From positions 135,124 through 199,123 of the IMG/VR virus record IMGVR_UViG_3300021256_000055: a stretch of DNA of 64,000 nt; one strand, 5' to 3'. Of this stretch, positions 2,088 to 22,555 are shown piece after piece (the first letter of the stretch is position 1; every line of letters starts with the position of its first letter). This DNA comes from a virus (taxonomy: Duplodnaviria; Heunggongvirae; Uroviricota; Caudoviricetes). The position numbers were made by a program, and so were the translations under genes. The notes beneath the pieces were generated by a model. That model saw only the letters and a list, made by a program, of their open reading frames with translations. It had not been told where the DNA came from and did not search any database.

Positions 2088-2119
2088 TTTATTACCTTAT
2101 TAAATATAATAACAATTTA

Positions 2120-2140
2120 GGAGGGCCAATTAAACCCTCC
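2120..2140. terminator. GC-rich hairpin (ggagggccaattaaaccctcc) between genes
   Basis: Perfect 6-bp GC stem seen in the sequence. Flanking T/A runs are only moderate, so terminator function is uncertain. Confidence 0.35.
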
Positions 2141-2146
2141 TAAAAA

Positions 2147-2392
2147 TTATTTTTCTTTAAGTTTTTTCTCCACTAGCTTTGCCATAGCATGAATATTTTC
2201 AAAGTCTTCTTTAACAAGGCCACCTTCATAAATAGAAATACTAAAAGCATGTTCCAAATCATTTATAAGATGCATAATATCCAAAGAATCAATGATACCA
2301 TTATTAAGAGTAGTATCCTTATCGATCTCAAAAAATCCATCTTTATTGATTCCAGTATTTATAATTTCTAAAATTTTATTCTCTATGTCCAT
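2147..2392 (-). CDS. acyl carrier protein-like (81 aa)
   Basis: Small acidic 4-helix-sized protein. The motif GIIDSLDIMHLI matches the ACP phosphopantetheine-attachment DSL(D) serine motif. It lies immediately downstream of, and slightly overlapping, a KAS gene. Confidence 0.6.
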   Translation of the reverse strand: MDIENKILEIINTGINKDGFFEIDKDTTLNNGIIDSLDIMHLINDLEHAFSISIYEGGLVKEDFENIHAMAKLVEKKLKEK

Positions 2393-4355
2393 CTGTAGTC
2401 CTTTTTATTATTTTACGCATTAGCTGCTGAGAGGATAAATACCAACTTGAATTTCTATCCCACTGGTACTTTACCTCTTTACCTTCCTGTGCACGCCCTA
2501 AAACAATTGAACAACACATAATTTTATCATCCTTAATATCACAATAGGATAATAATAAAATATTAACTTTATGCATGTCAAATAGAGTACTTACCATATT
2601 GTAGCACATTGGAAAACCATTTAGGCCTTCTATAACAGATAAGCAAGCTCCCTTAATGCCTGTATTTATTGAAAGCCACCCATCACCAGCATTATATACT
2701 GAATTTGGAAAAATACCAGCGTCTCCCCAATTATTTCCTTTTTCATAAATAATTTTTCCATAAGTTGAGTCAATAGCAGTAGGTGTACCTATTTCTGAGC
2801 TTCCTAAAATACCTATTTCATAACAATTTGATTCAGTTACTTCTATCCCTGCTTTTTTAAGGGCTCTAATACCAGAAACACTCTTTACTCTAGAGTATAA
2901 ATCCATTTTTCTTAAATTATTTACGTCGATACCACAATTTAAAAAATCTTTTGCACTTGGTACAACTAAGTTTTTCTCGGGTAAACAGTTAATATCTATA
3001 AAATCTTCTGGATTTTTATATAAATTTGTGTATAAATCCCAGCTTAGAACTTCTATTGGGTCTTCTATAATATTATCTATCCAACCCTCAGGATATTTTT
3101 GTTTTCTAGATAATACAATACTCGCGTCATTTCCGCCAAAGGCAAAAGAATTACATAAAATAACATTTGGCATCTTAAATGTCTCATATTGTCTTATATA
3201 ATTAACATTTTTATTTATACCTTCACCGCTAAAGCCAACTGTAGGTAGTAGTGTACCTTCATAAAACATTCTTGTGGCTAATACTGCATTTATTATACCG
3301 GATACACCTAAAGTATGTCCCAATGCTGATTTTGAACTACTAACATAGGGACCTTCAAACTTATCAATATCCTTTGTAAGTTTTTCAATAGCTAATGATT
3401 CTGCTGTATCATTTGCTATTGTACCCGTTCCATGTGTATAAATATAATCTACTGCTTTTACAGTAAACTTTGCATCTTCTAATGCCTTTTGCATTGTGTA
3501 TAATTGACTTTCACCTGTACTATCTGGAGCAGTAATATGATGTGCCTCTGAACTAATAGCGCCACCATCAAGATAACAATACCAATCTGCTTTTCGTTCT
3601 TTTGCTGCTTTTTCTGATTCCAATATTATTGCAGCGGCTCCTTCACCAAGAGTAAGCCCATTAGGATTACTAAGAGGAGCGCAAGGTTTAGTATCAAGTG
3701 CTTTTAATGATAGAAACCCTGAAAAATGTACATCAGATAATACATCAGCGCCAATTACAACAACTCTGTCTTCTTTACCACTTGCAATAAGATTATACGC
3801 ATAATATAAAGCTACAGTGCCTGAAGAACAAGCAGTTGAAATAGTTATTACGTTATCTGGTGGAACTAAACAAAGAGATGACTTCTTAATTACTTCATCA
3901 AAAGTTCTATCTGTAATAGATTCTTCATTAAAATCTTTATTATTATAAATGCTATCCTTATTATAAATTTGAGTTGCCCTATCTGAATCGCCAGAGCAAG
4001 TTGCATTTAGTATTACAATTCTGGAATTATCAAGTAATTTCGCATCTTTAACTGCATCATCAAGAGCTTTTCTTAAGATATAAAAATATTTTTTATTTTT
4101 TGATTTTGTATTACCCTGTAAATCTACTGTAAAACCTTTATTAGTCTTAGATAAAATTGAAAGACCCTCTTCTGGTTCACCATCCATAGTTATCTGTGTA
4201 ATTTCAGCACCAAGGTTAGTATAACAATTTTCAGTTGAGATACCTTTTATTTCTTTAATACCAGTTTGGTTTGCACAGATTTTACTATAATTTTCTTGAA
4301 CTGTGTCACCAAGAGAAGTAACTAATCCTATTCCTGTTATTACGCATTCATTCAT
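2376..4355 (-). CDS. beta-ketoacyl-ACP synthase (KAS I/II-like) with about 250-aa C-terminal extension
   Basis: The N-terminus VITGIGLVTSLGD is typical of KAS. Active-site Cys lies in ISTACSSGT. His motifs are YIYTHGTGT and GHTLGVSGI. The family end motif CNSFAFGGNDASIVL is present. A C-terminal region of about 250 aa is unassigned. Confidence 0.8.
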   Translation of the reverse strand: MNECVITGIGLVTSLGDTVQENYSKICANQTGIKEIKGISTENCYTNLGAEITQITMDGEPEEGLSILSKTNKGFTVDLQGNTKSKNKKYFYILRKALDDAVKDAKLLDNSRIVILNATCSGDSDRATQIYNKDSIYNNKDFNEESITDRTFDEVIKKSSLCLVPPDNVITISTACSSGTVALYYAYNLIASGKEDRVVVIGADVLSDVHFSGFLSLKALDTKPCAPLSNPNGLTLGEGAAAIILESEKAAKERKADWYCYLDGGAISSEAHHITAPDSTGESQLYTMQKALEDAKFTVKAVDYIYTHGTGTIANDTAESLAIEKLTKDIDKFEGPYVSSSKSALGHTLGVSGIINAVLATRMFYEGTLLPTVGFSGEGINKNVNYIRQYETFKMPNVILCNSFAFGGNDASIVLSRKQKYPEGWIDNIIEDPIEVLSWDLYTNLYKNPEDFIDINCLPEKNLVVPSAKDFLNCGIDVNNLRKMDLYSRVKSVSGIRALKKAGIEVTESNCYEIGILGSSEIGTPTAIDSTYGKIIYEKGNNWGDAGIFPNSVYNAGDGWLSINTGIKGACLSVIEGLNGFPMCYNMVSTLFDMHKVNILLLSYCDIKDDKIMCCSIVLGRAQEGKEVKYQWDRNSSWYLSSQQLMRKIIKRTTDGHRE

Positions 4356-4483
4356 CTAATATTCTCTTTTCCGTATTTTTTTGTAAGCTCTAAGATCTCC
4401 TTAAAAGTTTTTCCATTTAAAGGATTATTAGGCTTTCCAAGCCAATAAGAAATTGAGTCTTCGATAATGTCTAAATCTGTCAT

Positions 4484-4717: not shown

Positions 4718-4924
4718 CTAAAGTCCTAAGATCTGAAAAATAATAGCCATAATCAGCATTACACCCGCTGTAAATAATTGTCCCCTATAAGTTTTTCTAC
4801 ATATTTCTTTATTCTGATAAGACCAGTTAGCTGAAGTTTTTGCTTTCTTTTTAGAAAAGAAATAATTATATGCTGCCTGTGCTAAAGAATAAATAAATAA
4901 AATAAATGAAAAACCAGCAAACAC
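4718..4924 (-). CDS. small membrane protein (68 aa, two hydrophobic segments)
   Basis: Hydrophobic N- and C-terminal stretches. Confidence 0.4.
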   Translation of the reverse strand: MFAGFSFILFIYSLAQAAYNYFFSKKKAKTSANWSYQNKEICRKTYRGQLFTAGVMLIMAIIFQILGL

Positions 4925-7284: not shown

Positions 7285-7740
7285 TTAAGAATCTAGCCAA
7301 GCTTCAGGGTCAAATCTTTTTTTAGGTAAGGATGAGTCTAAATAAGACGTTGAACTATTAGTTTGGCTTATACTAGTACTGTAAGAAGTATTACCATTTT
7401 TTATTCTATCCCACCATGCCGTATGCTCTTCTGTACTAATAGGTTTTCCCGTCACGGGACTTTGAAAAGTATCTAGTCGTGTATGACAGCTTCGACAAAG
7501 TAAAACTACATTATCAAGATCATATGTTTTTTCAACATGTGCTCCTACAGCCTCTATATGAGCTACATCTGATGGAACTAAAAAATTACTAGGTATAAAT
7601 GTTTTTTGTCTAATTCCCATTTCTTCTGGTGTTAAAATAGCACAACATCTACATATACCTCTATCACGTTCCCAACATTTTTTCTTTGTTTCTTGCCAAA
7701 GAATATCCTCTTTACTTCTATGACTTACTTTCTCTTCCAT
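7285..7740 (-). CDS. HNH endonuclease (151 aa)
   Basis: Cys-rich: GICRCCAIL ... DVAHIEAVGAH ... NVVLLCRSCHTRLD matches the HNH His-Asn-His/zinc-finger pattern. Free-standing. Confidence 0.7.
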   Translation of the reverse strand: MEEKVSHRSKEDILWQETKKKCWERDRGICRCCAILTPEEMGIRQKTFIPSNFLVPSDVAHIEAVGAHVEKTYDLDNVVLLCRSCHTRLDTFQSPVTGKPISTEEHTAWWDRIKNGNTSYSTSISQTNSSTSYLDSSLPKKRFDPEAWLDS

Positions 7741-8207
7741 TATTCGCCTGTATAGTCTTCCCTGCGATGTTTAACCTCAACTGTTATTGCTGCGAAATCC
7801 CCTATACCAAAAGCTTTAACTAAATTTGAATCTGCTGCAACAATAATAGTTAATGTATTTTTATCTGTACCAGCAACATTTTTAAGAGATGCTTGGGTAA
7901 ACTTAAATGCTACATAATGATTGCCATCATTGCCTTGAACGTTTGCGCCATCTATAGACTCTAGCATAAAATTATTTTTAAAACTGGATGGAGTTATTGT
8001 AATTGTATATGCACTACCAAACATGGCTTTTATACGATTTTCTTCATTATTGGTAACAAAAATAAAATTATTATATTCATTTTCAGTAGTTACTTCAACA
8101 CTATTACCCATAAGCTTGTATGGTATATTACAATCTATGAAACTTACACGGCCTTTAAAAGTAATTACCTTTGAGTTTTCATCTATAACAGTTTTTCTTA
8201 CTCCCAT
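7740..8207 (-). CDS. hypothetical protein (155 aa)
   Basis: Intact ORF with beta-rich composition. Confidence 0.5.
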   Translation of the reverse strand: MGVRKTVIDENSKVITFKGRVSFIDCNIPYKLMGNSVEVTTENEYNNFIFVTNNEENRIKAMFGSAYTITITPSSFKNNFMLESIDGANVQGNDGNHYVAFKFTQASLKNVAGTDKNTLTIIVAADSNLVKAFGIGDFAAITVEVKHRREDYTGE

Positions 8208-8628: not shown

Positions 8629-9282
8629 TTATTTTTTAGCTTTTGGTGATTTTAATTTTTCAGGTTTTAATAGAGCTTTTCTTAATGTATGTATCTCATC
8701 ATAATTATCATACGATACTTTTTTGTCATCCTCACCTCTAGAGTAAGAATATACGTCAGGATTAAAATAGGCTAAAGCTCGTTTAGTAAAATATTCTACT
8801 TGCGACTTAGCCTTTTCCTTAATATTTAAAAGATTATAAGGTTCAATACCATGATCTCTAGCAAATATTGCATTTTTTAATGCCGTCGCCAAACCTATAA
8901 TTGGGTAGGAATGTTCAAATCCCTCATCTTCTGTATAACTAACACCAATAGAAACAGTTCCTTTACCATTAGAAATGGCTACAACCGACCCAAATGGTTT
9001 TCCTCTCTCAGACTGAATATAACTTAAACCACTATCTGTTACTACTTTATCTCCAATAAAGCCAGGACGTAAACGATTGCATAAATACTTATTTCCGCCT
9101 TTAGTAAAATCTTTAACAAAATCCTCTGCAGCAATTACTTCTTGCGCAAAATTTAATTCATCATTTGAACATCCAAGCTCCTTAGCTGATAGCGATGAAT
9201 TCTCTCTTAATTTTTTTACAACTAGCTTAATTGACTTAGATTGTATTTTATTTTTAAATCTATTTTTTTGTGAAAAGCTCAC
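8629..9282 (-). CDS. hypothetical protein (217 aa), Lys-rich termini
   Basis: Intact ORF. Confidence 0.5.
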   Translation of the reverse strand: MSFSQKNRFKNKIQSKSIKLVVKKLRENSSLSAKELGCSNDELNFAQEVIAAEDFVKDFTKGGNKYLCNRLRPGFIGDKVVTDSGLSYIQSERGKPFGSVVAISNGKGTVSIGVSYTEDEGFEHSYPIIGLATALKNAIFARDHGIEPYNLLNIKEKAKSQVEYFTKRALAYFNPDVYSYSRGEDDKKVSYDNYDEIHTLRKALLKPEKLKSPKAKK

Positions 9283-9836
9283 TTATCATTACCTACACTA
9301 CTAAGTATTTTTGTTGCTATTCCAAATCCTAAACCGCAGACTGCGCCTAAAACATGATTCTGATGCGCAATATGATCAGTCTTTGTGAACATAGCTAAAA
9401 ACTCTGGTAAAACAAATACCAATAAAAGTATAATACTAGTTATAGGTAATCCTTCAGACTCATCAGTCTGGAATGTGTTCAAAATAACCCACATATATGC
9501 AATAGATGATAATCCATAACATGGTATGCCAGATACCACAGATACTATACCTATAACTAGAGCGCCAAGTAGTGTAATTATCGCCAACGGAATTGTACCA
9601 AATTTATCTTCAATGGAAGGACCGAGCATAGCAATATAAACAATATTACCCAAAAAATGGCTCCATCCACTATGACCAAAAATATGTAAAACAATACCTG
9701 CATTCCATTTATTATTTGTTGCAAAATGACTAGCAAAATTTGGAATAAAACATTCCTGAATAAGAACAATAATAAATGAAATAAAAATCAATAAAACTGT
9801 AAAAGTTGACTCAAATGACACTAACTTCTTCTTCAT
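9279..9836 (-). CDS. rhomboid-family intramembrane serine protease (185 aa)
   Basis: Several TM segments. A TM2-like HIFGHSGWSHFLGN...LGPSIEDKFG matches the H..H...N / G..E...G motif. A catalytic Ser candidate lies in YGLSSIAY. A TM6 His lies in HIAHQNHVLGAVCGLGFG. Confidence 0.65.
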   Translation of the reverse strand: MKKKLVSFESTFTVLLIFISFIIVLIQECFIPNFASHFATNNKWNAGIVLHIFGHSGWSHFLGNIVYIAMLGPSIEDKFGTIPLAIITLLGALVIGIVSVVSGIPCYGLSSIAYMWVILNTFQTDESEGLPITSIILLLVFVLPEFLAMFTKTDHIAHQNHVLGAVCGLGFGIATKILSSVGNDK

Positions 9837-9839
9837 AAA

Positions 9840-10415
9840 CTATGCGCTATACTTATTAAGAATATCCTGAAGCTCATCCTTAGAGCCTTCGCCTTTTGCT
9901 GCAAACTTCCATTCGCCATTGTGACGATAAAGCTCTGCAACAATCATTGAAGCAGCTGTTGAATAGTCTTCTGAAAGATCAAAACGGAATTCTTCCTTAC
10001 CATTTGTATCATCCATAGATGAAAGGCTAAGAAGACGGATATAAGCATTATTTACCATACCAAAATTCTGCTTACGTTCAGCAGCCTTATGAATTGTTAC
10101 TGCAAATACAATGTGTTCAATATTTGCTGGAATCTTTTCAAAGTCAATAAGAATTGACTCATCATCACCAGCAGCATCACCTGTACGATTGTCACCAGAA
10201 TGGATAACAGCTCCAGAACTATGCTTTGTATGATTGTAGAATACAAAGTCATCATCTGATGTCATCTTTGAATTTGCACCAAGCAAAAATACTTCAGTGT
10301 CCAAATCAAAATCGGCTCCATTATCATAGCCATTTACATCCCAACCAAGGCCGGCCTTAGCAAAGCGCATTCCCTTGTCCAAAGAAACTTTCTGTCCTTT
10401 CTCAAGATTAATCAT
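9840..10415 (-). CDS. terD: TerD-domain protein (paralogue 1, 191 aa)
   Basis: MINLEKGQKVSL...GLGWDV...DFDLD...GDNRTG...GDDE...EIYRHNGEWKFAAKG are canonical TerD/TerE/TerZ (tellurium-resistance, Ca-binding) motifs. Confidence 0.85.
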   Translation of the reverse strand: MINLEKGQKVSLDKGMRFAKAGLGWDVNGYDNGADFDLDTEVFLLGANSKMTSDDDFVFYNHTKHSSGAVIHSGDNRTGDAAGDDESILIDFEKIPANIEHIVFAVTIHKAAERKQNFGMVNNAYIRLLSLSSMDDTNGKEEFRFDLSEDYSTAASMIVAELYRHNGEWKFAAKGEGSKDELQDILNKYSA

Positions 10416-10819
10416 TTAAGATCCTCCAATATTTTGTTAACTTCTTTTTCAGCTAACATATAATAATATGTTTTCGGGTCATACAAAAGTCTAACTCCAA
10501 TAATATCGGAATAAGAGCCCTCATAAGCGTATACTTCCAATTTTATTGGAAGATAACTACCCTTTTTAGATATTTTAGCCCAATTAAGCTTAATATCTCT
10601 TGCGATATCTTGCCTAATATCTTCTACTGTTAGAACAACATATGGACTCAAAAAAGGACCTTTATCATACGAAAACTCATATTCTAAGCCATCTTTGATT
10701 TCTATATAATTTAGAAAATCTAAATGATGACAAAGACTATTATTGTTTATCATATTTTCAAAAGTCTTTTGAGCCCTCTTTAAGTAAAAAAGGGGAGACC
10801 TACTAAGATATTGCTCCAT
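10412..10819 (-). CDS. hypothetical protein (135 aa) embedded in TerD array
   Basis: Intact ORF overlapping TerD1 by 4 nt. No motif. Confidence 0.5.
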   Translation of the reverse strand: MEQYLSRSPLFYLKRAQKTFENMINNNSLCHHLDFLNYIEIKDGLEYEFSYDKGPFLSPYVVLTVEDIRQDIARDIKLNWAKISKKGSYLPIKLEVYAYEGSYSDIIGVRLLYDPKTYYYMLAEKEVNKILEDLK

Positions 10820-10833
10820 AATCTCCCTATTTA

Positions 10834-11415
10834 TTAGCAGCTTCCACCATACTTACGTACAAATGCTTCAAGGCCACCAGCAAAGCCATCACCCTTTGCA
10901 GCAAATTTCCATTCACCATTATGGCGATAGATTTCAGCTACAAGAATAGCTGTTTCTGTTGAATAGTCTTCAGACAAATCAAAACGGAGTTCTTCCTTAC
11001 CTGACTCAGCACCTGCCTTTTCAAGAGAAAGCAAACGAATAAATGCATTGTTTACCATACCAAAATTCTGATGGCGTGTTTCCGCATCATGAATTGTTAC
11101 AACAAACGCAAGCTTTTCAATATTTGCTGGCACTTTAGTGAAATCAATATAAATTGATTCATCATCACCTTCTCCAGCGCCTGTACGATTATCTCCTGAA
11201 TGTATAACTGCGCCAGATGCATGTTTCTGGTTATTATAGAAGATAAAATCCTCATCTTTTTGAAGTTTATCTCCAGATCCAAGCATAAATACTGATGCGT
11301 CAAGATCAAAATCCTGACCGTTATCAAAACCATTTACATCCCAGCCAAGACCTGCTTTAGCAAACTTGATTCCAGAATCAAGTGAAACTTTCTGTCCTTT
11401 AGATAAGTTAATCAT
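10834..11415 (-). CDS. terD: TerD-domain protein (paralogue 2, 193 aa)
   Basis: Same motif set as paralogue 1: MINLSKGQKVSLD, GDNRTGAGEGDDE, EIYRHNGEWKFAAKGDG. Confidence 0.85.
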   Translation of the reverse strand: MINLSKGQKVSLDSGIKFAKAGLGWDVNGFDNGQDFDLDASVFMLGSGDKLQKDEDFIFYNNQKHASGAVIHSGDNRTGAGEGDDESIYIDFTKVPANIEKLAFVVTIHDAETRHQNFGMVNNAFIRLLSLEKAGAESGKEELRFDLSEDYSTETAILVAEIYRHNGEWKFAAKGDGFAGGLEAFVRKYGGSC

Positions 11416-11441
11416 TAACTACTCCTTAAATTTTTATTACT

Positions 11442-11455
11442 TATATAATATGTGA
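11442..11455 (-). promoter_or_regulatory. conserved TATAATATGT-type motif instance
   Basis: Plus-strand tatataatatgtga, upstream of TerD2. An AAGGAG ribosome-binding site lies between it and the ATG. Confidence 0.4.
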
Positions 11456-11471
11456 ATATTTTACGCTAAGT

Positions 11472-11825
11472 CTAGCTTTCAAGTAATTTAGAAACTTCAT
11501 AATTTGCTACATCTACATAATATTTATGCTCATCATAACTAATTTTGGCCATTATACTAAAACCTTCAACATAGAAGCTAATGCTAATTGGAATACATAT
11601 ATCCTTAATAGTATTTTTCCAAATTATTCTTAAATAATCTAATTGATAATCTAAATAACTTGGATCAGGACCAATTCTCATTCCGCTTATTTCTACAATA
11701 TAAAAATCTTCACCTTGCTTAGCCAACCTAACATAATTATATCCATTAGCAAATACAGCCCTTCTCAAAATAAGAAGGGCTTTCTTTAAGTAATTCTCAG
11801 GTGTATCAGTTATTTCTAAAAACAT
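11472..11825 (-). CDS. hypothetical protein (117 aa) embedded in TerD array
   Basis: Intact ORF. Confidence 0.5.
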   Translation of the reverse strand: MFLEITDTPENYLKKALLILRRAVFANGYNYVRLAKQGEDFYIVEISGMRIGPDPSYLDYQLDYLRIIWKNTIKDICIPISISFYVEGFSIMAKISYDEHKYYVDVANYEVSKLLES

Positions 11826-11827
11826 AT

Positions 11828-12355
11828 TTATTTATAACAAACTGAACTTACTGAAACTATTGAAGTATACGGATTAGTATCTACTTTATTTGGATAATCA
11901 GGATAGTTTGGGGTTCTTACATAAACTCTCTTTTGAAAATCCTGATAAGCGGTAGTATAAGACATATTATAAGTAGAATGACTTACACTATGCCTACGCC
12001 CATTATATACAAAATAGTACTCAGCACTATGATGTCTAGACTTTCTGGTTCTATGTCCCTCACTGTCAGTAACATAATAGTATTCTGTCCATGCGGGCTT
12101 ATATTCTCGCATTATATTCCATGACTCAGTATAAACTGGTCCACGCTCACTTTCAATCTCTGAAGTTGTATAGCTATATGTCTTATGAAGATGAACTATA
12201 CCTTTTCCAGCATAGAAAATCAAAACACAAGCTAATACAATTCCTACCAGAATCATAAAAGTCTTACCAACGCTGTCCCAAGGAATCTCATCCTTAAGTA
12301 CAGTAAGCGCAGAAGGCCTAGAACTGTACTTATTCTTTTCTGATGCCATTAGCAC
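11828..12355 (-). CDS. membrane-anchored hypothetical protein (175 aa), Tyr/Thr/His-rich ectodomain
   Basis: One N-terminal TM helix (FMILVGIVLACVLIFYAG). The rest is Y/T/S/H/R-rich. Confidence 0.5.
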   Translation of the reverse strand: MLMASEKNKYSSRPSALTVLKDEIPWDSVGKTFMILVGIVLACVLIFYAGKGIVHLHKTYSYTTSEIESERGPVYTESWNIMREYKPAWTEYYYVTDSEGHRTRKSRHHSAEYYFVYNGRRHSVSHSTYNMSYTTAYQDFQKRVYVRTPNYPDYPNKVDTNPYTSIVSVSSVCYK

Positions 12356-12930
12356 TGTCCACCGTACATACGAACGAATCCAGCTAATCCATTCTTGAAT
12401 CCGTCACCTTTTGCGCCAAACTTCCATTCACCATTATGACGATAAATTTCAGCAATCAAAAGGGCTGTCTCAGTAGAATAATCCTCGGTTAAATCAAAAC
12501 GAAGTAATTCTTCTCCAGCTGTATCTTCTTTATTTTTTACTGCAGTAAGATGAATAAATGCATTATCAACCATACCAAAGTTCTGTCTACGCTGATCAGC
12601 TTCATGAATTGTTACAACAATTGCAAGCTTGCTAATACTTGCTGGGATCTTTGTAAAATCAATATAAATCTGTTCATCATCACCGTCTCCGGCGCCGGTA
12701 CGGTTATCTCCCATATGTTTTACTGACTTTGAAGGATGCTCCAAATTATTATAGAAAACAAAATCTTCATCTTTCTGAAGTTTACCATTTGCGCCAAGCA
12801 TAAATACAGATGCATCCAAATCGAAATCAAAACCGCCACTATATTTATTTGTATCCCAACCAAGACCTACATAGGCATACTGTGTGGATTTTCCAAGTTC
12901 AATTTTCTGTCCTTTTACGAGATTAATCAT
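12349..12930 (-). CDS. terD: TerD-domain protein (paralogue 3, 193 aa)
   Basis: MINLVKGQKIEL...GLGWD...DFDLD...GDNRTGAGDGDDE...EIYRHNGEWKFGAKGDG. Confidence 0.85.
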   Translation of the reverse strand: MINLVKGQKIELGKSTQYAYVGLGWDTNKYSGGFDFDLDASVFMLGANGKLQKDEDFVFYNNLEHPSKSVKHMGDNRTGAGDGDDEQIYIDFTKIPASISKLAIVVTIHEADQRRQNFGMVDNAFIHLTAVKNKEDTAGEELLRFDLTEDYSTETALLIAEIYRHNGEWKFGAKGDGFKNGLAGFVRMYGGQC

Positions 12931-12943
12931 TTATATTCCTCCA

Positions 12944-12962
12944 GGGCGTTTTATAACGCCCC
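12944..12962 (-). other. GC-rich hairpin (gggcgttttataacgcccc) between TerD4 and TerD3
   Basis: Stem seen in the sequence. On the minus strand it is followed by a GGAGG ribosome-binding site, not a U-run, so it is more likely an intercistronic RNA structure than a strong terminator. Confidence 0.35.
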
Positions 12963-12975
12963 GATTTTTAATTTT

Positions 12976-13551
12976 TTAGTTATAGCGGTTAACAACAGCG
13001 CTGACATAATCAGCGTCTTTTACACCTTCACCAATAGCTGCGAACTTCCATTCACCGTTATGACGATAAATTTCACCAGCAATCAAACCTGTTGATGTAC
13101 CTTTAGATTCATCAAGATTGAAACGTGCAAGCTCTTCATTGCCATTCTTTGGATTGTAAAGACGAATATATGCATTACGCAAAGCAGACATATCCTGTCC
13201 ACGTTTTGATGCTTCATAAATATTCATGAAAACTACAATCTTATCTACATTTGAACGAACTTCATTCAATGAAATCTCAATTGTTTCATCATCACCGTCG
13301 CCACCACCAGTACGGTTATCTCCAGAGTGATGAATACCAGGAAGGTCCTTATTGCTGAAATAAACAGTTGATTCATTAAACTGTCGAGAAACTACTCTAC
13401 CATCTGAGCCCAAACAAACGCAAGAAGCATCACAGTCAAAATCTGCTGCCCAAGAACTCTGCACTGGGTCCCAACCAAGACCAACATTAATTTTTGTAAG
13501 GCTTGTACCTTTTGTAAGATCAATTTTCTGACCCTTTGTTAAATTAATCAT
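12976..13551 (-). CDS. terD: TerD-domain protein (divergent paralogue 4, 191 aa)
   Basis: MINLTKGQKIDL...GLGWDP...DFDCD...SGDNRTGGGDGDDE...EIYRHNGEWKFAAIGEG. Confidence 0.8.
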   Translation of the reverse strand: MINLTKGQKIDLTKGTSLTKINVGLGWDPVQSSWAADFDCDASCVCLGSDGRVVSRQFNESTVYFSNKDLPGIHHSGDNRTGGGDGDDETIEISLNEVRSNVDKIVVFMNIYEASKRGQDMSALRNAYIRLYNPKNGNEELARFNLDESKGTSTGLIAGEIYRHNGEWKFAAIGEGVKDADYVSAVVNRYN

Positions 13552-13574
13552 TTAACATCCTCCAAATATTTTAA

Positions 13575-14162
13575 TTACCAGCGATTAATAATTTCTGAAA
13601 TACGACTAGCATTTTTAATTGATTCACCAACCGCAGTGAAATTCCAACCATCTTCCGACTTAGACAATTCTCCTGCTATAAATCCTTCAACTGGTCCCAG
13701 GTCTTTATCCAAATCATAACGACAAAGTTCTTCATTAGTGTCTGCGTTATATACACGAATATAAGCATTTCTCAAACTTGTCATATTCTGATGACGATCT
13801 CGCGCATCATAAATATTCATAAAGATTGGAATACGTTCAACATTATTTGGAAGTTTGTCAAAGGTGATAGAAATCGTTTCATTATCTTTATTTCCGCCAC
13901 CAACACGATCATCACCAGAATGATGAACACCAGCCATATCTTTATGACCATAATAAACTACATAATCAGTTCCAAGAAGTTTACCCTTCTTGGAAAGACA
14001 TGCCAAAGAAGCATCACAATCAATATCTTCATCATTACTAAAAATTGATAAAAGACCCTTTTTGCGTTCTACTTCATCCCAGCCTAAAGCAACATTGATA
14101 TGCTTAAGCGTACCATCTTTTTTTACAAGGTTAATTCCCTGTCCTTTTGTTAAATTAATCAT
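13575..14162 (-). CDS. terD: TerD-domain protein (divergent paralogue 5, 195 aa)
   Basis: MINLTKGQGINL...ALGWDE...DIDCD...SGDDRVGGGNKDNE. More degenerate, but the same architecture. Confidence 0.7.
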   Translation of the reverse strand: MINLTKGQGINLVKKDGTLKHINVALGWDEVERKKGLLSIFSNDEDIDCDASLACLSKKGKLLGTDYVVYYGHKDMAGVHHSGDDRVGGGNKDNETISITFDKLPNNVERIPIFMNIYDARDRHQNMTSLRNAYIRVYNADTNEELCRYDLDKDLGPVEGFIAGELSKSEDGWNFTAVGESIKNASRISEIINRW

Positions 14163-14620: not shown

Positions 14621-15232
14621 TTAGAGAACCAAATCTCCATCAGCTGATGTTACAACACGAATACCATAAGTTTTTGTATCTACTTCGGCTGTTGGATCAA
14701 TAGCTACAGTTGCGTCCTTAACAATTGTTAGTGTCTGAGGAAGCTGAGCTACTTCATTTGCAAGTGCTGATTCTTTTGCACAATTGAATACACAATAGTC
14801 ATAACAAAGACCAGTAAAATACAAATTTACTTTTTCACCATTCTTAATAGCGTCATCAATTGGCTTCATATCTTTTTCTGACAGTCGTCCAAGAACATCA
14901 ACACCATACTCTTCTTCAGCTGCATTCTGGCCTTTATAAATAAAGGCAACTGGCTTGTCCTTTGCAAATGCAGAAATCATATCAGATACACGCCAATCCA
15001 AATCAGAACCAGCTGTGCCATCTACACAGTGTGCAGGCCAAGGACCATTCTGCTCCTTAAATGAACAGTGATTAGTAGGATGCATATCCTTTGTGGCGAT
15101 AATCATATCAGGATTAATTCTTTCCTGAGCAATCTTAAGCTTATTAAAAGCTTCATCCCACTTGTCATAACCGACTCCAAGTGAGCCGTTAATAAAATCG
15201 TTCTGAACATCTACCAAAACTAAAATATTCAT
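14621..15232 (-). CDS. pncA: nicotinamidase/pyrazinamidase-like isochorismatase-family hydrolase
   Basis: VLVDVQNDF N-terminal Asp motif. Catalytic Cys lies in YFTGLCYDYCV. Fold-typical length of 203 aa. Confidence 0.7.
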   Translation of the reverse strand: MNILVLVDVQNDFINGSLGVGYDKWDEAFNKLKIAQERINPDMIIATKDMHPTNHCSFKEQNGPWPAHCVDGTAGSDLDWRVSDMISAFAKDKPVAFIYKGQNAAEEEYGVDVLGRLSEKDMKPIDDAIKNGEKVNLYFTGLCYDYCVFNCAKESALANEVAQLPQTLTIVKDATVAIDPTAEVDTKTYGIRVVTSADGDLVL

Positions 15233-15250
15233 GTTTTAACTCCTTACGAA

Positions 15251-15261
15251 TATAATATGTA
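15251..15261 (-). promoter_or_regulatory. conserved TATAATATGT motif instance
   Basis: Plus-strand tataatatgta, upstream of the pncA-like gene. An AAGGAG ribosome-binding site follows. Confidence 0.4.
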
Positions 15262-15283
15262 TTTTAATATTAAAAATGCTAAA

Positions 15284-15550
15284 TTATTTTAATCTCTCAT
15301 GATTAAATTTTTTTGTATATTTGTTAACTTCTGCTTCTGTGAGCTTACCATAAATTCTTTCCATAAGAAAGAGTATTGCGTCTAATCCTGCATAAAATCC
15401 ATCAAAATTAAAAAATAAAATTTTATTAAAAAAATCTTTTTTAGACAAATTATCGGCGGGCATAACGCAAGCACTTCTTATACCCTGCTGTTCTTTTGGA
15501 GATACCTCAACTTGTTCACGATTTGCATTATACCTAAAAACCAAATCCAT
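15284..15550 (-). CDS. hypothetical protein (88 aa)
   Basis: Intact ORF. Confidence 0.45.
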   Translation of the reverse strand: MDLVFRYNANREQVEVSPKEQQGIRSACVMPADNLSKKDFFNKILFFNFDGFYAGLDAILFLMERIYGKLTEAEVNKYTKKFNHERLK

Positions 15551-15594
15551 AATAAGCTCCTTCCCTTCCTAGGTATAATATGTCTATGAAGATA

Positions 15595-16152
15595 CTATAA
15601 GTCTAAATTTTTAGATAAAATTTCTTTTCTAATACGAGTTGAAGATTCTGGATTATTCATTGGAATATATTCATATGGAATATCTGTTGGCAAGTCTGTA
15701 TCATATCCGGGGCGATTAAAAACTATAAGCTTTGTCAAAGCCAAAATTTCTTCCCACTTATACCATGTTTTAATTTTCTGAAGTGAATCTGAGCCAATAG
15801 CTACATAAAATTCTATACCAGCAGCATTTGCTTGTTTTTTAGCTAGCTCAATATTATCAATATCAGCTTGGCAAAAAGATTCTATAAAAAATTTAATTGT
15901 ATCTATAAAACGCCAATTTTCTGGAATATTAGCTTCAATTTTAGAAACTATAATATTTGGTAAATAGCTAACTTTATCCTCTACCATTTTACAGCGATCC
16001 TCAAATGAGTACATTGTTTGATTTGGCTTATAGTATGTAATATTTGTTGGTACAAGAATTACCTTATCAAACTTATCTGACAAATATTCAACTATTTCTT
16101 TATGTGCACTGTGAAATGGATCAAATGTACCACCATAAATTACATATCTCAT
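15595..16152 (-). CDS. nadD: nicotinate/nicotinamide mononucleotide adenylyltransferase (NadD/NMNAT family)
   Basis: GGTFDPFHSAH is the (H/T)xGH nucleotidyltransferase motif. The C-terminal SSTRIR is the ISSTxxR motif of NadD. Confidence 0.75.
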   Translation of the reverse strand: MRYVIYGGTFDPFHSAHKEIVEYLSDKFDKVILVPTNITYYKPNQTMYSFEDRCKMVEDKVSYLPNIIVSKIEANIPENWRFIDTIKFFIESFCQADIDNIELAKKQANAAGIEFYVAIGSDSLQKIKTWYKWEEILALTKLIVFNRPGYDTDLPTDIPYEYIPMNNPESSTRIRKEILSKNLDL

Positions 16153-16322
16153 TAAAAAACCTCTGCAAGAAATTTACCAATAAAAATTGAGGCTGTCCCA
16201 CCTAGAAGGATAAAAACTAATCTACGAAAGAAATGTGTCCACTTAAAAGACTCATCTGGAGTAAGCTTTACTTCATATAGAGTCTTATCTTCCTCATCCT
16301 TAATTTTAATAGTCTTTTCCAT
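16152..16322 (-). CDS. small membrane protein (about 56 aa), not in the supplied ORF track
   Basis: My own translation: MEKTIKIKDEEDKTLYEVKLTPDESFKWTHFFRRLVFILLGGTASIFIGKFLAEVF. Its stop overlaps the nadD start (TAATG). The conserved motif abuts its ATG. Confidence 0.4.
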   Translation of the reverse strand: MEKTIKIKDEEDKTLYEVKLTPDESFKWTHFFRRLVFILLGGTASIFIGKFLAEVF

Positions 16323-16323
16323 A

Positions 16324-16337
16324 TTTATAATATGTAA
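16324..16337 (-). promoter_or_regulatory. conserved TTTACATATTATAAA motif instance abutting a start codon
   Basis: Minus-strand reading is ACATATTATAAAT then ATG. No ribosome-binding site in between. Confidence 0.45.
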
Positions 16338-16360
16338 TTTATATTAAGAAATTATGAATT

Positions 16361-16921
16361 TTAATTTTTAAAAGTAAGTTCTACCTGATAAACTTCTGAG
16401 AAAGGATATACTTTAATATTTTCTTGTATAGTAATACCACTTGGGCTTGGGATTACATTACTAGCATAATCTGAAATTTCATTACTTATTTTATATTTTT
16501 CTAAAGTACTATCCAACTTATGCTGTAATAAAGCTGCATTATAATTATTCATTTGCTTACCAATCATAGTCTGAGATACAGCCTGAATATCCTGCTTTAT
16601 CTTACTATAAAGCATACGGTCCCTAAGTGATATTTCATCGGGCATATCACCACTATATAAACGGTCTAACTCATCCGCCTCTTCAAAGTCATCCCCACCA
16701 AAATAATCTACTGCATCATGAAATGATGCTTGATTAGTTGCGTCCCCAATCTTAAGCTTATCTTTTCTTACCTTACTTGTCTTTGGTACATCTACTTTCT
16801 CTAGACTAATGGGAGAAATGCCTTTGGAATCTAAAGTCAACTCATTAGGGCTTATAGTAACTTTATCATCTGCAAATGTAAATTTATTAAATATTGATAA
16901 AAGGTTCTTTTGAAGAGACAT
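16361..16921 (-). CDS. hypothetical protein (186 aa)
   Basis: Intact ORF. Confidence 0.5.
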   Translation of the reverse strand: MSLQKNLLSIFNKFTFADDKVTISPNELTLDSKGISPISLEKVDVPKTSKVRKDKLKIGDATNQASFHDAVDYFGGDDFEEADELDRLYSGDMPDEISLRDRMLYSKIKQDIQAVSQTMIGKQMNNYNAALLQHKLDSTLEKYKISNEISDYASNVIPSPSGITIQENIKVYPFSEVYQVELTFKN

Positions 16922-17114
16922 AAATTTCTATTACCCTAGCGCCTTCCGGCCATAATGGATGATTTTCATTTGGCTGTTCATCAGCTTCTCTATAATATGC
17001 TAAAATTTGGTCCATTGATTCAAATTCGCGAATTACTCTTAATCTGTTATCTGTGCCCTCACTAGTATAAATTGGAGCATTAGTAACTACACAAAATTTT
17101 TTTACGAAATTCAT
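16887..17114 (-). CDS. hypothetical protein (75 aa)
   Basis: Intact ORF overlapping its downstream gene. Confidence 0.4.
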   Translation of the reverse strand: MNFVKKFCVVTNAPIYTSEGTDNRLRVIREFESMDQILAYYREADEQPNENHPLWPEGARVIEIYVSSKEPFINI

Positions 17115-17144
17115 AATAATAGATTAGCGTAGGATAATAAAAAA

Positions 17145-17164
17145 GGACTGCATAGATGCAGTCC
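17145..17164 (-). terminator. rho-independent terminator (ggactgcatagatgcagtcc)
   Basis: 8-bp stem followed by tttttt on the minus strand. Sits 3' of the Nudix gene. Confidence 0.6.
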
Positions 17165-17187
17165 CTTAAATTTATTTTTAAATTATA

Positions 17188-17820
17188 TTACTTTTTATAT
17201 TTTGCTTCAAATTTTGCTTTTGCAAAAGCGGCTTTTTTAGCTTTACTATAATAATCAGCAATCTTTATTTGTTCCTTAAGCGCAGTAAGCTGTTCGTAAC
17301 TTTGCCAAAGAAAAGCGCCCATAACTGAATCATCATCACTTCCAAGATAATCATTTGGGTTATCTACTTCTACAACATTGATAAACTCATTCTCGTCAAG
17401 ATGCTGTTTATCACGCTCACCTGAAACTTCCACCAAAAATCCATTCATATGATTATTCATAAACGCCGGATTTGGACATTTTCTATAAAGCTGTGTAATA
17501 ATTTTTACATCTTTATAACCAGTTTCTTCCTTAACTTCTCTTACACAAGCTTCAGCTGGCGTTTCACCTTCCTCAACTGTTCCCGAAGGAAATTCATAAA
17601 CTTCCTTATTTACGCCATGACGAAACTCTTTTACCATAATAAACTTTTTTGTGTCTTTATTATAAATAAGAGCTGAACACCAATCTGGACATTTTAAAGA
17701 AACAAACTTACCCTGCTTACCCGCTGGATTAGTTTTAACAGTTTCCATAACTGTCCAAATAAATGTTTTTAAAAGTTCTTTTGTTTCACCAATTTTCCAT
17801 TCTGCCATTTTAAGCTCCAT
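17188..17820 (-). CDS. Nudix hydrolase (ADP-ribose/NAD-derivative pyrophosphatase-like)
   Basis: Perfect Nudix box: GTVEEGETPAEACVREVKEETGY (G-x5-E-x7-REVxEExGY). Confidence 0.8.
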   Translation of the reverse strand: MELKMAEWKIGETKELLKTFIWTVMETVKTNPAGKQGKFVSLKCPDWCSALIYNKDTKKFIMVKEFRHGVNKEVYEFPSGTVEEGETPAEACVREVKEETGYKDVKIITQLYRKCPNPAFMNNHMNGFLVEVSGERDKQHLDENEFINVVEVDNPNDYLGSDDDSVMGAFLWQSYEQLTALKEQIKIADYYSKAKKAAFAKAKFEAKYKK

Positions 17821-17821
17821 A

Positions 17822-17834
17822 TTTATAATATGTT
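17822..17834 (-). promoter_or_regulatory. conserved motif instance abutting the Nudix start codon
   Basis: Minus-strand reading is ACATATTATAAAT then ATG. Confidence 0.45.
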
Positions 17835-19362
17835 ATCTAATGTTATAAATGTCTGAATATTTATCTTTCAAATAGTCGATAAAATAATGTGGATTAAAAT
17901 CCTCATCTGTTATATATTTAATCCAGTCAAGGGTATCTCTTAAATCTGGCTCAGCATCAGTAAATACCCAATCTTTCATCCATTTATTTATTTTACTAAA
18001 GTCACATTTTGCTAAATCGCCTTTAATGTCGAGCTCTTCAGTATCTTCCAACATATAATTGTAATACATTGCATTCAACATATTTCCAATTGCATAAGTT
18101 GGAAAATATCCAAAACCACTTGACCAATGCATATCTTGAAGAATTCCTTCTTTATCATTTGGTGGTGTTATACCAAGATAGTCCTTATATTTATCATTCC
18201 AAATTTTTGGCAAATCTTCAATCTTAGCCTGCTTATTAAGAATAAGCTGTTCAATTTCATAGCGGATTATAATATGGAACGTATATGTTAATTCATCTGC
18301 TTCTGTACGAATAAGTGTTGGCTTAACTTCATTAAGCGCTTCATAAAGTTCTTGTGGAGTTACATCATTAAGTACATTAGGAATAATTTCTTTTAATTCA
18401 TCAAAAATACCAAAAATAAACTCTTTTGATGAGCACAAAACATTTTCATAAAATCTTGATACTGATTCATGTTTTGAAAGAGATTTATTATCACAGAACT
18501 TATCATATGCTTCAGGATTTCCATTCTGCATAAAAAGTGCATGGCCACCTTCATGAATACAGGAGTACATACTATACTGAAAAGCAGTTGGATAATAATG
18601 TGTTGTAACACGTGCATCATTCTTTGTCATCTGCTCTGTAAATGGATGCTCAGACTCTGCTAAAAGGCCCTTATTAAAATTAAATCCAATTTTAGAAAGA
18701 ACTAAATTGCTAATCTTTTTTTGTTGTTCAATAGAAACTTCTCTACTAAGGAAATCAGTCCTAATCTTCTTTTTAGAGTTTACAATCTTTTTAAGAAATG
18801 GTACCATTTCTGTTTTGAACTCACCAAACCAGTAATCCAAGTCCTTAGTTGTAATATCCTTTTCGTATTCATAGAATACAGCATCATAAACATTATCAAA
18901 CTTTGGTTTATCTGCCCACTTATCTAACTGTTCAAAAGTTACATCCCTAACCGCGCTTAGAGAATCCTTAAATAAATTAAAATCACTTGCTTGCTTAGCC
19001 TGTTGCCAATCAGAGAAAGCTTTTAAGAAAACCCTACAATGTTTATCAGCCATTTCCGGAGTAATATTTTTGCTTCTACAATAATCTTCATATAGAAGCT
19101 CAATAGTTTTACGAGCATATTTGTCTTTTATAATATGACGATGCTTATAAAAGTAGAGCATAGTTTTAATATATTTTTTATCTTTGAATCTTTTAAAATT
19201 CTGATTACTGATAAAAGCTTCTAATTCGCTATGCTCATCCATAGCGTCTTTTGGACAAATAGTTTCTCTATCAAAAGCCAATAAATTATTTATACTGTTG
19301 TATTTATTTGATTCTTCTAAAAACTTAATCAAATAATCTCTTTTCTTCTGTACGCTACTCAC
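17833..19362 (-). CDS. M32-family carboxypeptidase (carboxypeptidase Taq-like metallopeptidase)
   Basis: HEGGHALF is the HExxH motif. IRTEADELTY and GILQDMHWSSGFGYFPTYAIGNM match M32 signature blocks (IRxEADE; QDxHW...GYFPTY). Confidence 0.75.
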   Translation of the reverse strand: MSSVQKKRDYLIKFLEESNKYNSINNLLAFDRETICPKDAMDEHSELEAFISNQNFKRFKDKKYIKTMLYFYKHRHIIKDKYARKTIELLYEDYCRSKNITPEMADKHCRVFLKAFSDWQQAKQASDFNLFKDSLSAVRDVTFEQLDKWADKPKFDNVYDAVFYEYEKDITTKDLDYWFGEFKTEMVPFLKKIVNSKKKIRTDFLSREVSIEQQKKISNLVLSKIGFNFNKGLLAESEHPFTEQMTKNDARVTTHYYPTAFQYSMYSCIHEGGHALFMQNGNPEAYDKFCDNKSLSKHESVSRFYENVLCSSKEFIFGIFDELKEIIPNVLNDVTPQELYEALNEVKPTLIRTEADELTYTFHIIIRYEIEQLILNKQAKIEDLPKIWNDKYKDYLGITPPNDKEGILQDMHWSSGFGYFPTYAIGNMLNAMYYNYMLEDTEELDIKGDLAKCDFSKINKWMKDWVFTDAEPDLRDTLDWIKYITDEDFNPHYFIDYLKDKYSDIYNIR

Positions 19363-20206
19363 CTAAAATTACCTTCTTAAATACACGATAGTTTGTATCA
19401 TCATCTGGTCTACAATATACCGCAAACTCAATATTTCTAAAACAATGCTTAAACTCTGGCAAAACTGCCTTGTACGCTTTTGCTACAATTACTGGATCAT
19501 TTCTAAATGCACCACATCCAAAAGCGCCAACAATAAGTGTATCACAACCATTATTTGCAGCAACATTAAAAATACGTCGCGCACGTTTAACATGAAGATT
19601 ATACAAATCTTCATCTGAAATTTCAACCTTCTCTACAGCAAGCTCTTCATTATAAGCATTTTTTGGATTTGGCCGCAAATTCGGTGCAGCACAAGTAAGT
19701 ACATCTACTTTCATCCAGTCGTCATTCTGAAGAATATGATAATTATCTTCCTTAAAAATTACAACTCCAGGAGTATAAATAATATCATCATTATGGAGAG
19801 GCCCTAAACTTTCCCTATGCGGAGTATAAAACTTATCAAAACATTCTTTAATATTAAGGCTGTTATAAAGTGTTGAGCATCTACATAAACATTCTTCCTG
19901 TGCTGAAGAACCTTTTGTTACTCCACCACCTGGTGTAGTTGCTGAAGCAAAATTCAATACACATACTTTATTTGAAATATACTCCCTAGCTGCATCAAAA
20001 GAACTTGACTTTGTAACATATATCTTTGATGGTCCCTGGTATTTATCTTCAGCTTTAGGAATTTCTGTATTTTCCAAAATAATCTGTTGATTTTCAGTTG
20101 CTTTTTCTACAGCTTCCTTTAAGTAAGCCGTAGTTTTAATTCTGTCAACAGTATCATTAAAAACTGAAATATTACTTTCTCTTATTGAAAAAGATTTTCC
20201 TGACAT
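19355..20206 (-). CDS. bacterial-type poly(ADP-ribose) glycohydrolase / macro-domain protein (DUF2263/TIGR02452-like)
   Basis: ATTPGGGVTKGSSAQEECLCRCS matches the GGG-x6-8-QEE PARG signature. The downstream Gly-rich segment GAFGCGAF fits a macro fold. Confidence 0.6.
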   Translation of the reverse strand: MSGKSFSIRESNISVFNDTVDRIKTTAYLKEAVEKATENQQIILENTEIPKAEDKYQGPSKIYVTKSSSFDAAREYISNKVCVLNFASATTPGGGVTKGSSAQEECLCRCSTLYNSLNIKECFDKFYTPHRESLGPLHNDDIIYTPGVVIFKEDNYHILQNDDWMKVDVLTCAAPNLRPNPKNAYNEELAVEKVEISDEDLYNLHVKRARRIFNVAANNGCDTLIVGAFGCGAFRNDPVIVAKAYKAVLPEFKHCFRNIEFAVYCRPDDDTNYRVFKKVILGE

Positions 20207-21336: not shown

Positions 21337-21361
21337 AATAATTTTCCTATAATAATAAAAT

Positions 21362-21387
21362 AGCCTCAGATTTGATAATCCGAGGCT
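21362..21387 (-). terminator. rho-independent terminator (agcctcagatttgataatccgaggct)
   Basis: 8-bp stem plus T-rich tail on the minus strand. Confidence 0.5.
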
Positions 21388-21393
21388 TTCTTA

Positions 21394-21843: not shown

Positions 21844-21847
21844 GCAA

Positions 21848-21862
21848 TTATAATATGTAAAT
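21848..21862 (-). promoter_or_regulatory. conserved motif instance (ttataatatgtaaat)
   Basis: 4 nt upstream of the minus-strand ATG at 21843. Confidence 0.45.
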
Positions 21863-21876
21863 AATTGACATAAAGA

Positions 21877-22553: not shown

Positions 22554-22555
22554 TT

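Follow-up and report, generated by a model that had tools for sequence, protein, structure and literature searches.

In type II fatty acid synthesis (FAS II), the condensing enzyme FabF is a homodimer without a chain-length factor (CLF), and it works with the acyl carrier protein (ACP) AcpP. A minimal type II polyketide synthase (PKS) consists of an active ketosynthase (KS, or KS-alpha), an inactive KS-like partner (the CLF, or KS-beta), and an ACP. Its KS and CLF are encoded by separate genes; malonyl groups are transferred by FabD from fatty acid synthesis (FAS), and a phosphopantetheinyl transferase (PPTase) of the cell is needed as well. In PfaC (PDB 6riw), a covalent fusion joins the active KS to a second, inactive KS fold that is CLF-like, and the two pack as a pseudo-dimer; this CLF is full-length, and the fusion lies within a multidomain megasynthase with dehydratase (DH) domains. 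In ApeO-ApeC, from the aryl-polyene type II PKS (6qsp, 7f27/7f28), the CLF is a separate polypeptide in a complete biosynthetic gene cluster (BGC) with a ketoreductase (KR), a DH, and two ACPs. ApeC is a half-size CLF that keeps the first thiolase fold alone (PMC8358021). Here we describe a KS gene and an ACP gene in a 64,000-nucleotide stretch of DNA from a likely huge phage (positions 135,124 to 199,123 of IMG/VR record IMGVR_UViG_3300021256_000055; hereafter, the window). The KS protein seems to join two features that were seen separately before, the fusion of PfaC and the half-size CLF of ApeC. Its catalytic core and ACP chemistry appear to be those of FabF and AcpP, and, like a minimal type II PKS, the pair would combine an active KS, an inactive KS-like partner, and an ACP.

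Both genes are on the minus strand. The ACP gene is downstream of the KS gene and its start precedes the KS stop, so that the two overlap by 17 nt; the original prediction, made from the window's sequence, had placed an ACP immediately downstream of a 659-amino-acid beta-ketoacyl-ACP synthase (KAS), and this arrangement holds. The genes and the domains of the KS protein are:

2376..4355, minus strand: KS–half-CLF gene, 659 amino acids (open reading frame (ORF) call)
3102..4355, minus strand: KS domain, residues 1–418 of the 659-amino-acid protein (PF00109 and PF02801)
2379..3098, minus strand: CLF-like half domain, residues 420–659 (profile against PDB sequences, and predicted structure)
2147..2392, minus strand: ACP-like gene, 81 amino acids (ORF call, and matches to carrier-protein families)

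The KS domain matches PF00109 at residues 2–250 (71.2 bits, E = 1.3e-19) and PF02801 at residues 259–375 (85.7 bits, E = 3e-24), with both scores above Pfam's gathering cutoff of 20.8 bits for these families. Cys176, His308, and His347 align with the catalytic triad of FabF from Vibrio, and Lys342 and Phe406 align with its conserved lysine and its gating phenylalanine. None of the five residues varies among 96 aligned homologues. This bears out the earlier reading of the protein as a KAS with canonical Cys/His/His motifs, and by sequence the KS domain is an elongating enzyme of the thiolase superfamily, of KAS I/II type, with its key residues intact. We rejected the idea that it is an orthologue of FabF (KAS II): NCBIfam's fabF model (TIGR03150) gives 252.1 bits (E = 7.8e-75), versus an equivalog cutoff of 493.75 bits, and all of the other KAS equivalog models in NCBIfam are likewise under their cutoffs for this protein. 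The NCBIfam model for AmcF, which is the KS of type II PKS-like systems, matches nearly as well as the FabF-type models do (E = 5e-52). The best match of the KS domain among PDB sequences is 9s5h_B.

The conserved residues also bear on whether the module manipulates the host instead of making acyl chains. It might be a decarboxylase or a sink for malonyl-ACP, or a decoy that titrates FAS partners, and lipid synthesis and malonyl-CoA-dependent regulation would then be shut down or re-tuned. KS and KS-CLF enzymes of the type II PKS and FabF types can decarboxylate malonyl-ACP without condensation. Also, the module lacks any downstream enzyme, and a truncated partner domain could have changed its function. 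However, the cysteine would be dispensable in something that is purely a decoy or a decarboxylase, while Cys176, both histidines, the lysine, and the gating phenylalanine are strictly conserved in relatives that are just 41–56% identical. In known decarboxylating KS variants, the cysteine is replaced by glutamine or serine. We consider host manipulation of this kind to be very unlikely, and we prefer to view the KS domain as a condensing enzyme.

The original prediction also noted an extra C-terminal region of roughly 250 amino acids that had no known function and might be a truncated KS-like or CLF-like domain. The region is real (about 240 amino acids), the suggestion about its nature stands, and we now read it as half of a CLF instead of a region of unknown function. 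In Pfam, the isolated C-terminal 237 amino acids have only a sub-threshold match to PF00109 (E = 0.26), and placing the domain required a profile search against PDB sequences. The profile of residues 420–659 matches residues 3–267 of FabF (E = 6e-42) as well as the inactive partners of KS heterodimers: 9s5h_C (E = 5e-35), the AntE-like 6smo_C (E = 5e-17), and Iga12 (6kxd_B, E = 5e-11). (The match of the CLF-like domain to 9s5h_C is better than its match to 9s5h_B; 9s5h, a recent entry, would thus seem to be a related kind of KS/KS-like heterodimer.) Leucine takes the place of the catalytic cysteine in the window protein, and alanine does so in its bacterial relatives. The half of the second KS fold that would bear the histidines is absent: the protein aligns to the first half of the second fold in homologues of about 790 amino acids, and those run about 150 residues further. 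On this evidence and that of the predicted structure, the C-terminal 240 amino acids are a fused, inactive, half-size CLF-like domain, comprising the first thiolase-fold half of a second KS, with no catalytic cysteine and no histidine-bearing half.

More specific assignments of this domain were considered and rejected. The CLF (KS-beta) of aromatic type II PKSs has glutamine at the cysteine position, for decarboxylative priming, where the phage protein has leucine. Unlike ApeC, the domain has no match to PF13723, even at E ≤ 10, and it is fused to a KS instead of being a separate polypeptide, so we did not assign it to that family. In the search of representative proteins, the C-terminal domain also had multi-stretch matches to giant repeat proteins, and we discarded these as spurious repeat matches.

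Structure prediction, which had been suggested as a check on the C-terminal region, points the same way. The AlphaFold2 model of the full protein, built with the 96-sequence alignment, has a pLDDT of 86.4 and a pTM of 0.92, and pLDDT is mostly above 90 in the KS domain. Its best match in PDB is the KS-CLF didomain of PfaC (6riw; E = 1e-35, TMq = 0.73, 776 columns), with both domains covered, whereas single KS chains superpose on the model at a TMq of only about 0.53. This comparison predicts that the C-terminal domain packs against the KS where a dimer partner, or CLF, would be. The model of the C-terminal domain by itself is of moderate quality (pLDDT = 70.7) and matches the N-terminal halves of FabF. 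It also matches ApeC (6qsp_B, 238 amino acids; TMt = 0.49, E = 2e-6), with the best target coverage of all matches. The 659-amino-acid protein may well be a single-chain pseudo-heterodimer, with one active site and one acyl pocket. If the model is right, then the KS–half-CLF format suggests a possible compact scaffold, having a single active site, for engineering.

The phage protein differs from PfaC in that it is stand-alone and has the first thiolase half only. Furthermore, it is only about 14% identical to PfaC in sequence, and it is encoded in a phage-like genome without partner enzymes. As for ApeC, the half-size format was probably reached convergently, because the phage domain appears by sequence to descend from a truncated form of a full-length second domain of the kind found in Clostridia. 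Judging from sequence and model together, the protein is closest to PfaC in structure, parallels ApeO-ApeC in format, and shares its descent with the Clostridial didomain family.

This family comprises KS-CLF proteins of about 790 amino acids from Clostridia, other Firmicutes, and Actinobacteria, which are annotated only as "beta-ketoacyl-ACP synthase family protein." The nearest cellular relatives of the phage protein are the members from gut Clostridia, which are 31–35% identical to it and score up to 346 bits over both domains. They share an adjacent ACP gene and, in the second domain, the motifs RK(M/L)D, FPN(S/T)VxNA, and G(I)KG and the lack of a catalytic cysteine. In contrast to the phage protein, they have a complete second KS fold and are encoded in full operons. 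A search with the C-terminal domain against 1.84 billion representative proteins found 78 relatives, and most of these are didomain proteins of about 800 amino acids. The 640–670-amino-acid format with half of a CLF is found in only a handful of proteins (P0002–P0005, 41–56% identity) among 5.8 billion.

An operon in a metagenome-assembled genome of a gut Clostridial bacterium (L004, 9743..17888) illustrates the bacterial arrangement. It encodes an ACP, the KS-CLF, a KR, a DH similar to FabA or ApeI, an acyltransferase (AT), the acetyl-CoA carboxylase (ACC) subunits AccD and AccA, an FMN reductase-like protein, and PlsX. Among the closest loci from the human gut, every contig that is long enough keeps the ACP, the KS-CLF, the KR, the DH, and the FMN-reductase-like gene. 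Most of these loci also have AT and AccD/AccA, although one subgroup with 10-kb flanks does not. PlsX is present in only some of the Clostridial KS-CLF operons (loci L004 and L012–L039). The operon of gut Clostridia looks like an unusual FAS that is built around a KS-CLF. We found no description of stand-alone fused KS-CLF enzymes in the open-access literature, so a by-product of this analysis is an apparently undescribed family of stand-alone KS-CLF didomain proteins that is central to FAS-like operons of gut Clostridia. Other relatives have a different setting. A homologue on a Priestia plasmid lies in a BGC-like cluster with a short-chain dehydrogenase/reductase, a thioesterase, a PPTase, an AT, a KR, an ACP, a DH, and an exporter of the major facilitator superfamily.

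None of these partner genes accompany the phage module. We considered the 64-kb window and about 10 kb on either side, or about 84 kb, and precomputed Pfam matches in this region include no AT, KR, DH, enoyl reductase (ER), ACC, thioesterase, PPTase, or adenylating enzyme. When we used tblastn to compare the enzymes of two bacterial KS-CLF operons to the window and to related loci, we found only the KS-CLF itself. The original prediction that no AT, KR, DH, or ER lies nearby was thus correct for this region. We also considered whether a CTP_transf_like gene in the window might be a phosphopantetheine adenylyltransferase for ACP maturation, but it is NadD-like and is part of an NAD-salvage island (described below). 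The phage lineage appears to have kept the condensing core and the carrier and to have lost all of the partner enzymes, along with the C-terminal half of the second domain. From the sequence relationships, a FAS-like operon such as those of gut Clostridia is quite plausible as the source of the module, which would correspond to its KS-CLF/ACP core.

The other half of the module is the 81-amino-acid protein, which had been called an ACP on the basis of a DSLD serine motif. This motif (Asp35-Ser36-Leu37-Asp38) is invariant in the four ACPs of the phage clade, and Asp35, Ser36, and Asp38 align with the attachment motif of E. coli AcpP and of the Clostridial operon's ACP. The family and PDB matches of the protein are weak, but all of them are carrier proteins, which upholds the call. 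The NCBIfam models for DltC, AmcB, and ACP match at E values near 1e-6, below their cutoffs; PHROG 5934 ("acyl carrier protein") matches at E = 2e-6; and all of the significant PDB matches are to carrier proteins, with E values down to 8e-6 with a profile. In each related locus, the gene that directly follows the KS encodes an orthologue with 63–69% identity. We hold, with moderate confidence, that this protein is the dedicated carrier of the KS–half-CLF.

The module also has a third, smaller gene, and it may end in a terminator:

4352..4483, minus strand: 43-amino-acid ORF directly upstream of the KS gene (translation and conservation)
2116..2144, minus strand: terminator-like hairpin with a 12-bp stem and a T-rich tail, 3 nt past the ACP stop

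The stop of the 43-amino-acid ORF overlaps the start of the KS gene by 4 nt (ATGA). In four related loci the predicted peptide is 51–65% identical, with the invariant core YW.GK..NPL..KTF.EI..L....G.ENI. Every related locus has a gene call at this position, with a product of 43–48 amino acids across the phage-clade loci. The module of 43-amino-acid ORF, KS, and ACP recurs in at least five related genomes, whose KS proteins are 41–56% identical. The order is the same throughout the phage-clade loci, and the carrier gene overlaps or abuts the KS stop. Given these overlaps and their conservation, the three genes could well form a translationally coupled unit within a clade of very large phage-like genomes. 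The hairpin probably marks the end of the transcription unit, with moderate support: the relative L090 has a hairpin of different sequence at the matching position after the ACP gene, while L002 and L003 have no hairpin after theirs.

The neighborhood of the module is conserved as well. An array of five TerD paralogues followed by a rhomboid protease gene (9279..14162, minus strand) lies directly upstream of the KS/ACP block in all of the related loci, and the synteny around the module also includes a PHA02142-type RNA ligase and SIR2. About 360 nt upstream of the KS unit, and two genes before the KS, is a 68-amino-acid ORF (4718..4924, minus strand) with two hydrophobic stretches that resemble transmembrane segments; a 68-amino-acid gene is called at the corresponding place in related loci. 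We also noticed that in L090, a gene three genes upstream of the KS–half-CLF (7309..7809) encodes a CoaE-like dephospho-CoA kinase (TIGR00152, E = 5e-11, below the cutoff). This gene could be linked to the supply of CoA or phosphopantetheine, but it is near the KS in this one relative only and is not in the window.

What would a phage do with a condensing enzyme and a carrier? Our proposal, to which we give about an even chance, is that they form a condensing module that depends on host enzymes and plugs into the host's acyl-chain synthesis. A host PPTase would convert the phage ACP to holo-ACP, and the host's FabD would load malonyl onto it. The phage KS-CLF would then condense an acyl thioester with malonyl-ACP, and the host's KR, DH, and ER would complete each cycle. 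The phage would provide the committed condensing step as well as the carrier, and the synthesis of acyl chains (membrane lipids) would be sustained or re-directed during a long infection. We favor this proposal because the closest relatives of the module are in FAS-like operons (ACC is present in most of these, and PlsX in some), and because its neighborhood is rich in membrane-related genes (rhomboid, Band_7, the peptide with two putative transmembrane segments, and the TerD array). The original prediction had suggested either that the pair hijacks the host's FAS II or that it builds an acyl or polyketide moiety, and both are consistent with the evidence.

Several observations weigh against our proposal. 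First, the 81-amino-acid protein scores 19.5 bits against PF00550, below the cutoff of 20.8 bits. Second, it shares only 26% identity with the Clostridial operon's ACP, which is encoded upstream of its KS-CLF instead of downstream. Third, the closest relative of the phage ACP outside the phage clade (46% identity, E = 8e-6) is encoded beside an AMP-binding ligase in a glycan cluster, and not beside a KS, which makes the carrier's partner uncertain. Fourth, the genome is at least 204 kb (and possibly 580–940 kb), so a PPTase, an AT, or reductases could lie beyond the 84 kb that we considered. Fifth, some bacterial relatives are in secondary-metabolite-like clusters, as on the Priestia plasmid, so a role in lipid synthesis is not the sole precedent. 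Finally, the identification of the element as a phage rests on gene context, and cross-talk with host enzymes is less certain if the host is not a bacterium with a compatible FAS.

The third point raises the possibility that the carrier and the KS are not partners. The 81-amino-acid protein would then be a DltC-like or aminoacyl carrier for modifications of glycans or of the teichoic-acid type, and it would be loaded by an adenylating enzyme that is encoded elsewhere, while the KS–half-CLF would act on the host's ACP. DltC is indeed the best NCBIfam match (E = 1.3e-6), and the PDB matches include D-alanyl and peptidyl carrier proteins. On the other hand, the AmcB and ACP models score equally well, no adenylating enzyme is encoded within the region that we considered, and bacterial KS-CLF operons also carry an adjacent ACP gene. 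Furthermore, although the sequences have diverged by about 50%, all five related loci keep the ACP gene overlapping or abutting the KS gene. We think that there is little chance that the two are unrelated, and we continue with a carrier that serves the KS.

The fifth point relates to another explanation. The pair might instead be a minimal type II PKS whose own carrier would hold a short poly-beta-keto or beta-keto-acyl product that host reductases do not process. Malonyl loading would still be borrowed from the host, and the product might be a signal, a toxin, an anti-defense molecule, or an acyl group that lipidates a phage or host molecule. In its favor, the gene content amounts to a KS, a CLF-like domain, and an ACP and no more. 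As a match for the KS, FabF is only slightly better than the KSs of type II PKS-like systems; the latter include AmcF, by its NCBIfam model, and, among the structural matches, Iga11 and AntD. The dedicated and divergent ACP suggests orthogonality to the host's AcpP, and some bacterial relatives have BGC-like surroundings that include a PPTase, a thioesterase, and an exporter. However, the CLF-like domain has leucine and not the priming glutamine of aromatic type II PKSs, and the KS and CLF are fused instead of being encoded by separate genes. The nearest relatives of the module are reducing systems, with KR and DH acting in every cycle, and the closest homologues are in FAS-like operons. Also, within about 84 kb there is no cyclase, thioesterase, transferase, or exporter, and there is no cyclase/aromatase context of the kind found with minimal type II PKSs. 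A minimal PKS therefore seems unlikely, if not so far-fetched as a decoy. A bolder form of this idea, which we consider quite unlikely, is that a clade of megaphage size carries a self-sufficient, single-chain "minimal synthase" with its own ACP, which would make a dedicated acyl or polyketide product from host malonyl-CoA alone. Such a product might be a lipid for a membrane structure made by the phage, an anti-defense molecule, or a signal between infected cells, and the module would then do more than supplement fatty acid synthesis by the host. We still favor a module that relies on the host's FAS enzymes.

Our proposal presumes that the element is a phage. Proteins identical to those of the window are found on a contig of 203,783 bp and on an NCBI contig of 940,564 bp, and the module also occurs in a relative, the 578,814-bp "scaffold_1." The window consists of ORFans arrayed almost entirely in one direction; its recognizable genes include five TerD genes, rhomboid, Band_7, an HNH endonuclease, a PurZ-like enzyme, a beta-CASP nuclease, and a DNA methylase. 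Jumbo phages commonly carry TerD genes, which are also a noted feature of huge phages from the gut (PMC12880540). The neighboring RNA ligase (PHA02142-type) matches ligases of jumbo phages in the phage collection that we searched, and the first among the matches listed is from a 735-kb record of an uncultured phage. From this gene content, the element is likely to be a huge phage, and we are rather confident of this.

As to the claim that the module is phage-borne, the gene content and context do resemble those of huge phages, but our searches for phage hallmark genes (capsid, portal, terminase, and tail families) across about 84 kb found none. (Our PHROG scans covered 38 further ORFs of the window, six ORFs of the flanks, and a 5671-amino-acid ORF in three pieces.) The sole structural hint is a weak match to a "portal" PHROG (E = 8e-7). 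So, we also considered that the element might be another kind of giant extrachromosomal element, or a bacterial contig that is mis-binned or chimeric. Besides the missing hallmarks, our searches of IMG/VR and INPHARED returned no relative. In IMG/VR, a single-sequence scan had no match and a profile scan gave one unrelated match at 30% identity. In INPHARED, megablast with the locus and with 25 kb of the window found nothing, and tblastn with the KS found only matches at about 25–35% identity, mostly to host-like FabF in low-quality "phage" records. Also, the 940-kb contig is larger than any phage genome in the papers that we consulted, among them the 735-kb genome that was called the largest known for a phage in 2020 (PMC7162821). 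However, the content of the window is typical of huge phages (co-directional ORFans, TerD, ribosomal protein S21, NAD salvage, HNH, PurZ-like enzyme, and RNA ligase), and, unlike a cellular chromosome, it has few Pfam matches. There is also no relative in the 185,579 species genomes of GTDB, so the module does not come from a catalogued bacterial species. A scan of JGI metagenomes found only the bacterial family of about 790 amino acids and no further members of the phage clade. With the jumbo-phage ligases and the TerD genes of gut huge phages as well, we consider a non-phage element to be improbable, and we return to a huge phage as the preferred identification. If it is a phage, and if the 940,564-bp contig is not a concatemer or a chimera, then it would exceed that 735-kb record (PMC7162821).

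Neither a recent insertion nor a chimeric assembly would account for the module. The codon usage and composition of the KS gene agree with the rest of the window (r = 0.94), so we rejected both ideas. We also rejected an alternative genetic code, as all three stop codons are used in the window.

Fatty acid synthesis genes have been linked to phages before. ACP modules of jumbophages have been reported (PMC13573597), and a phage ACP family is on record as PHROG 5934. In predicted prophages of Rhodobacteraceae, fabG-acpP-fabF occur in the host's gene order (PMC8224337); those genes are host-like and may be artefacts of prophage boundaries, while the module described here is diverged, fused, and conserved across a clade. 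In a survey of phage-borne biosynthetic clusters, most were bacteriocins and a single one was a type 3 PKS (10.1101/2020.10.01.322628). In the literature that we found, phage ACP and fabF appear only in computational surveys, without a functional test. In the open-access literature, we did not find a fused KS–half-CLF with a dedicated ACP that is conserved across huge-phage genomes. What seems new here is a diverged condensing enzyme that is conserved together with its own carrier in very large phage-like genomes, with no partners nearby. If the module is active, then huge phages would take over the committed step of host acyl-chain synthesis, in which the carbon-carbon bond is formed, and this would be a new kind of metabolic takeover. 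The KS–half-CLF/ACP hypothesis is testable by simple biochemistry and would be informative either way.

Other genes in the window are also of interest. A single ORF of 5671 amino acids (43718..60733, minus strand) is identical on several contigs; it has no Pfam match on record, and its three pieces of about 1890 amino acids have no PHROG match. The gene for ribosomal protein S21 (PF01165, about 42815..43018, plus strand) is on the opposite strand from most genes. An island for NAD salvage and ADP-ribose metabolism (14621..24226, minus strand) encodes a nicotinamidase, a NadD-like nicotinamide mononucleotide adenylyltransferase, a NUDIX protein, an M32 peptidase, a protein similar to poly(ADP-ribose) glycohydrolase, a histidine phosphatase, and an NAD synthase. 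SIR2 is near this island, just past the start of the window (L001, 16168..16905). The island may replenish NAD+ against defense systems that deplete NAD. Finally, a homologue of adenylosuccinate synthetase (26935..28038, minus strand) matches the phage PurZ-type family phrog_1211 at E = 5e-24, versus 3.5e-10 for PurA models, which may point to 2-aminoadenine (Z) DNA or to some related modification of nucleotides.

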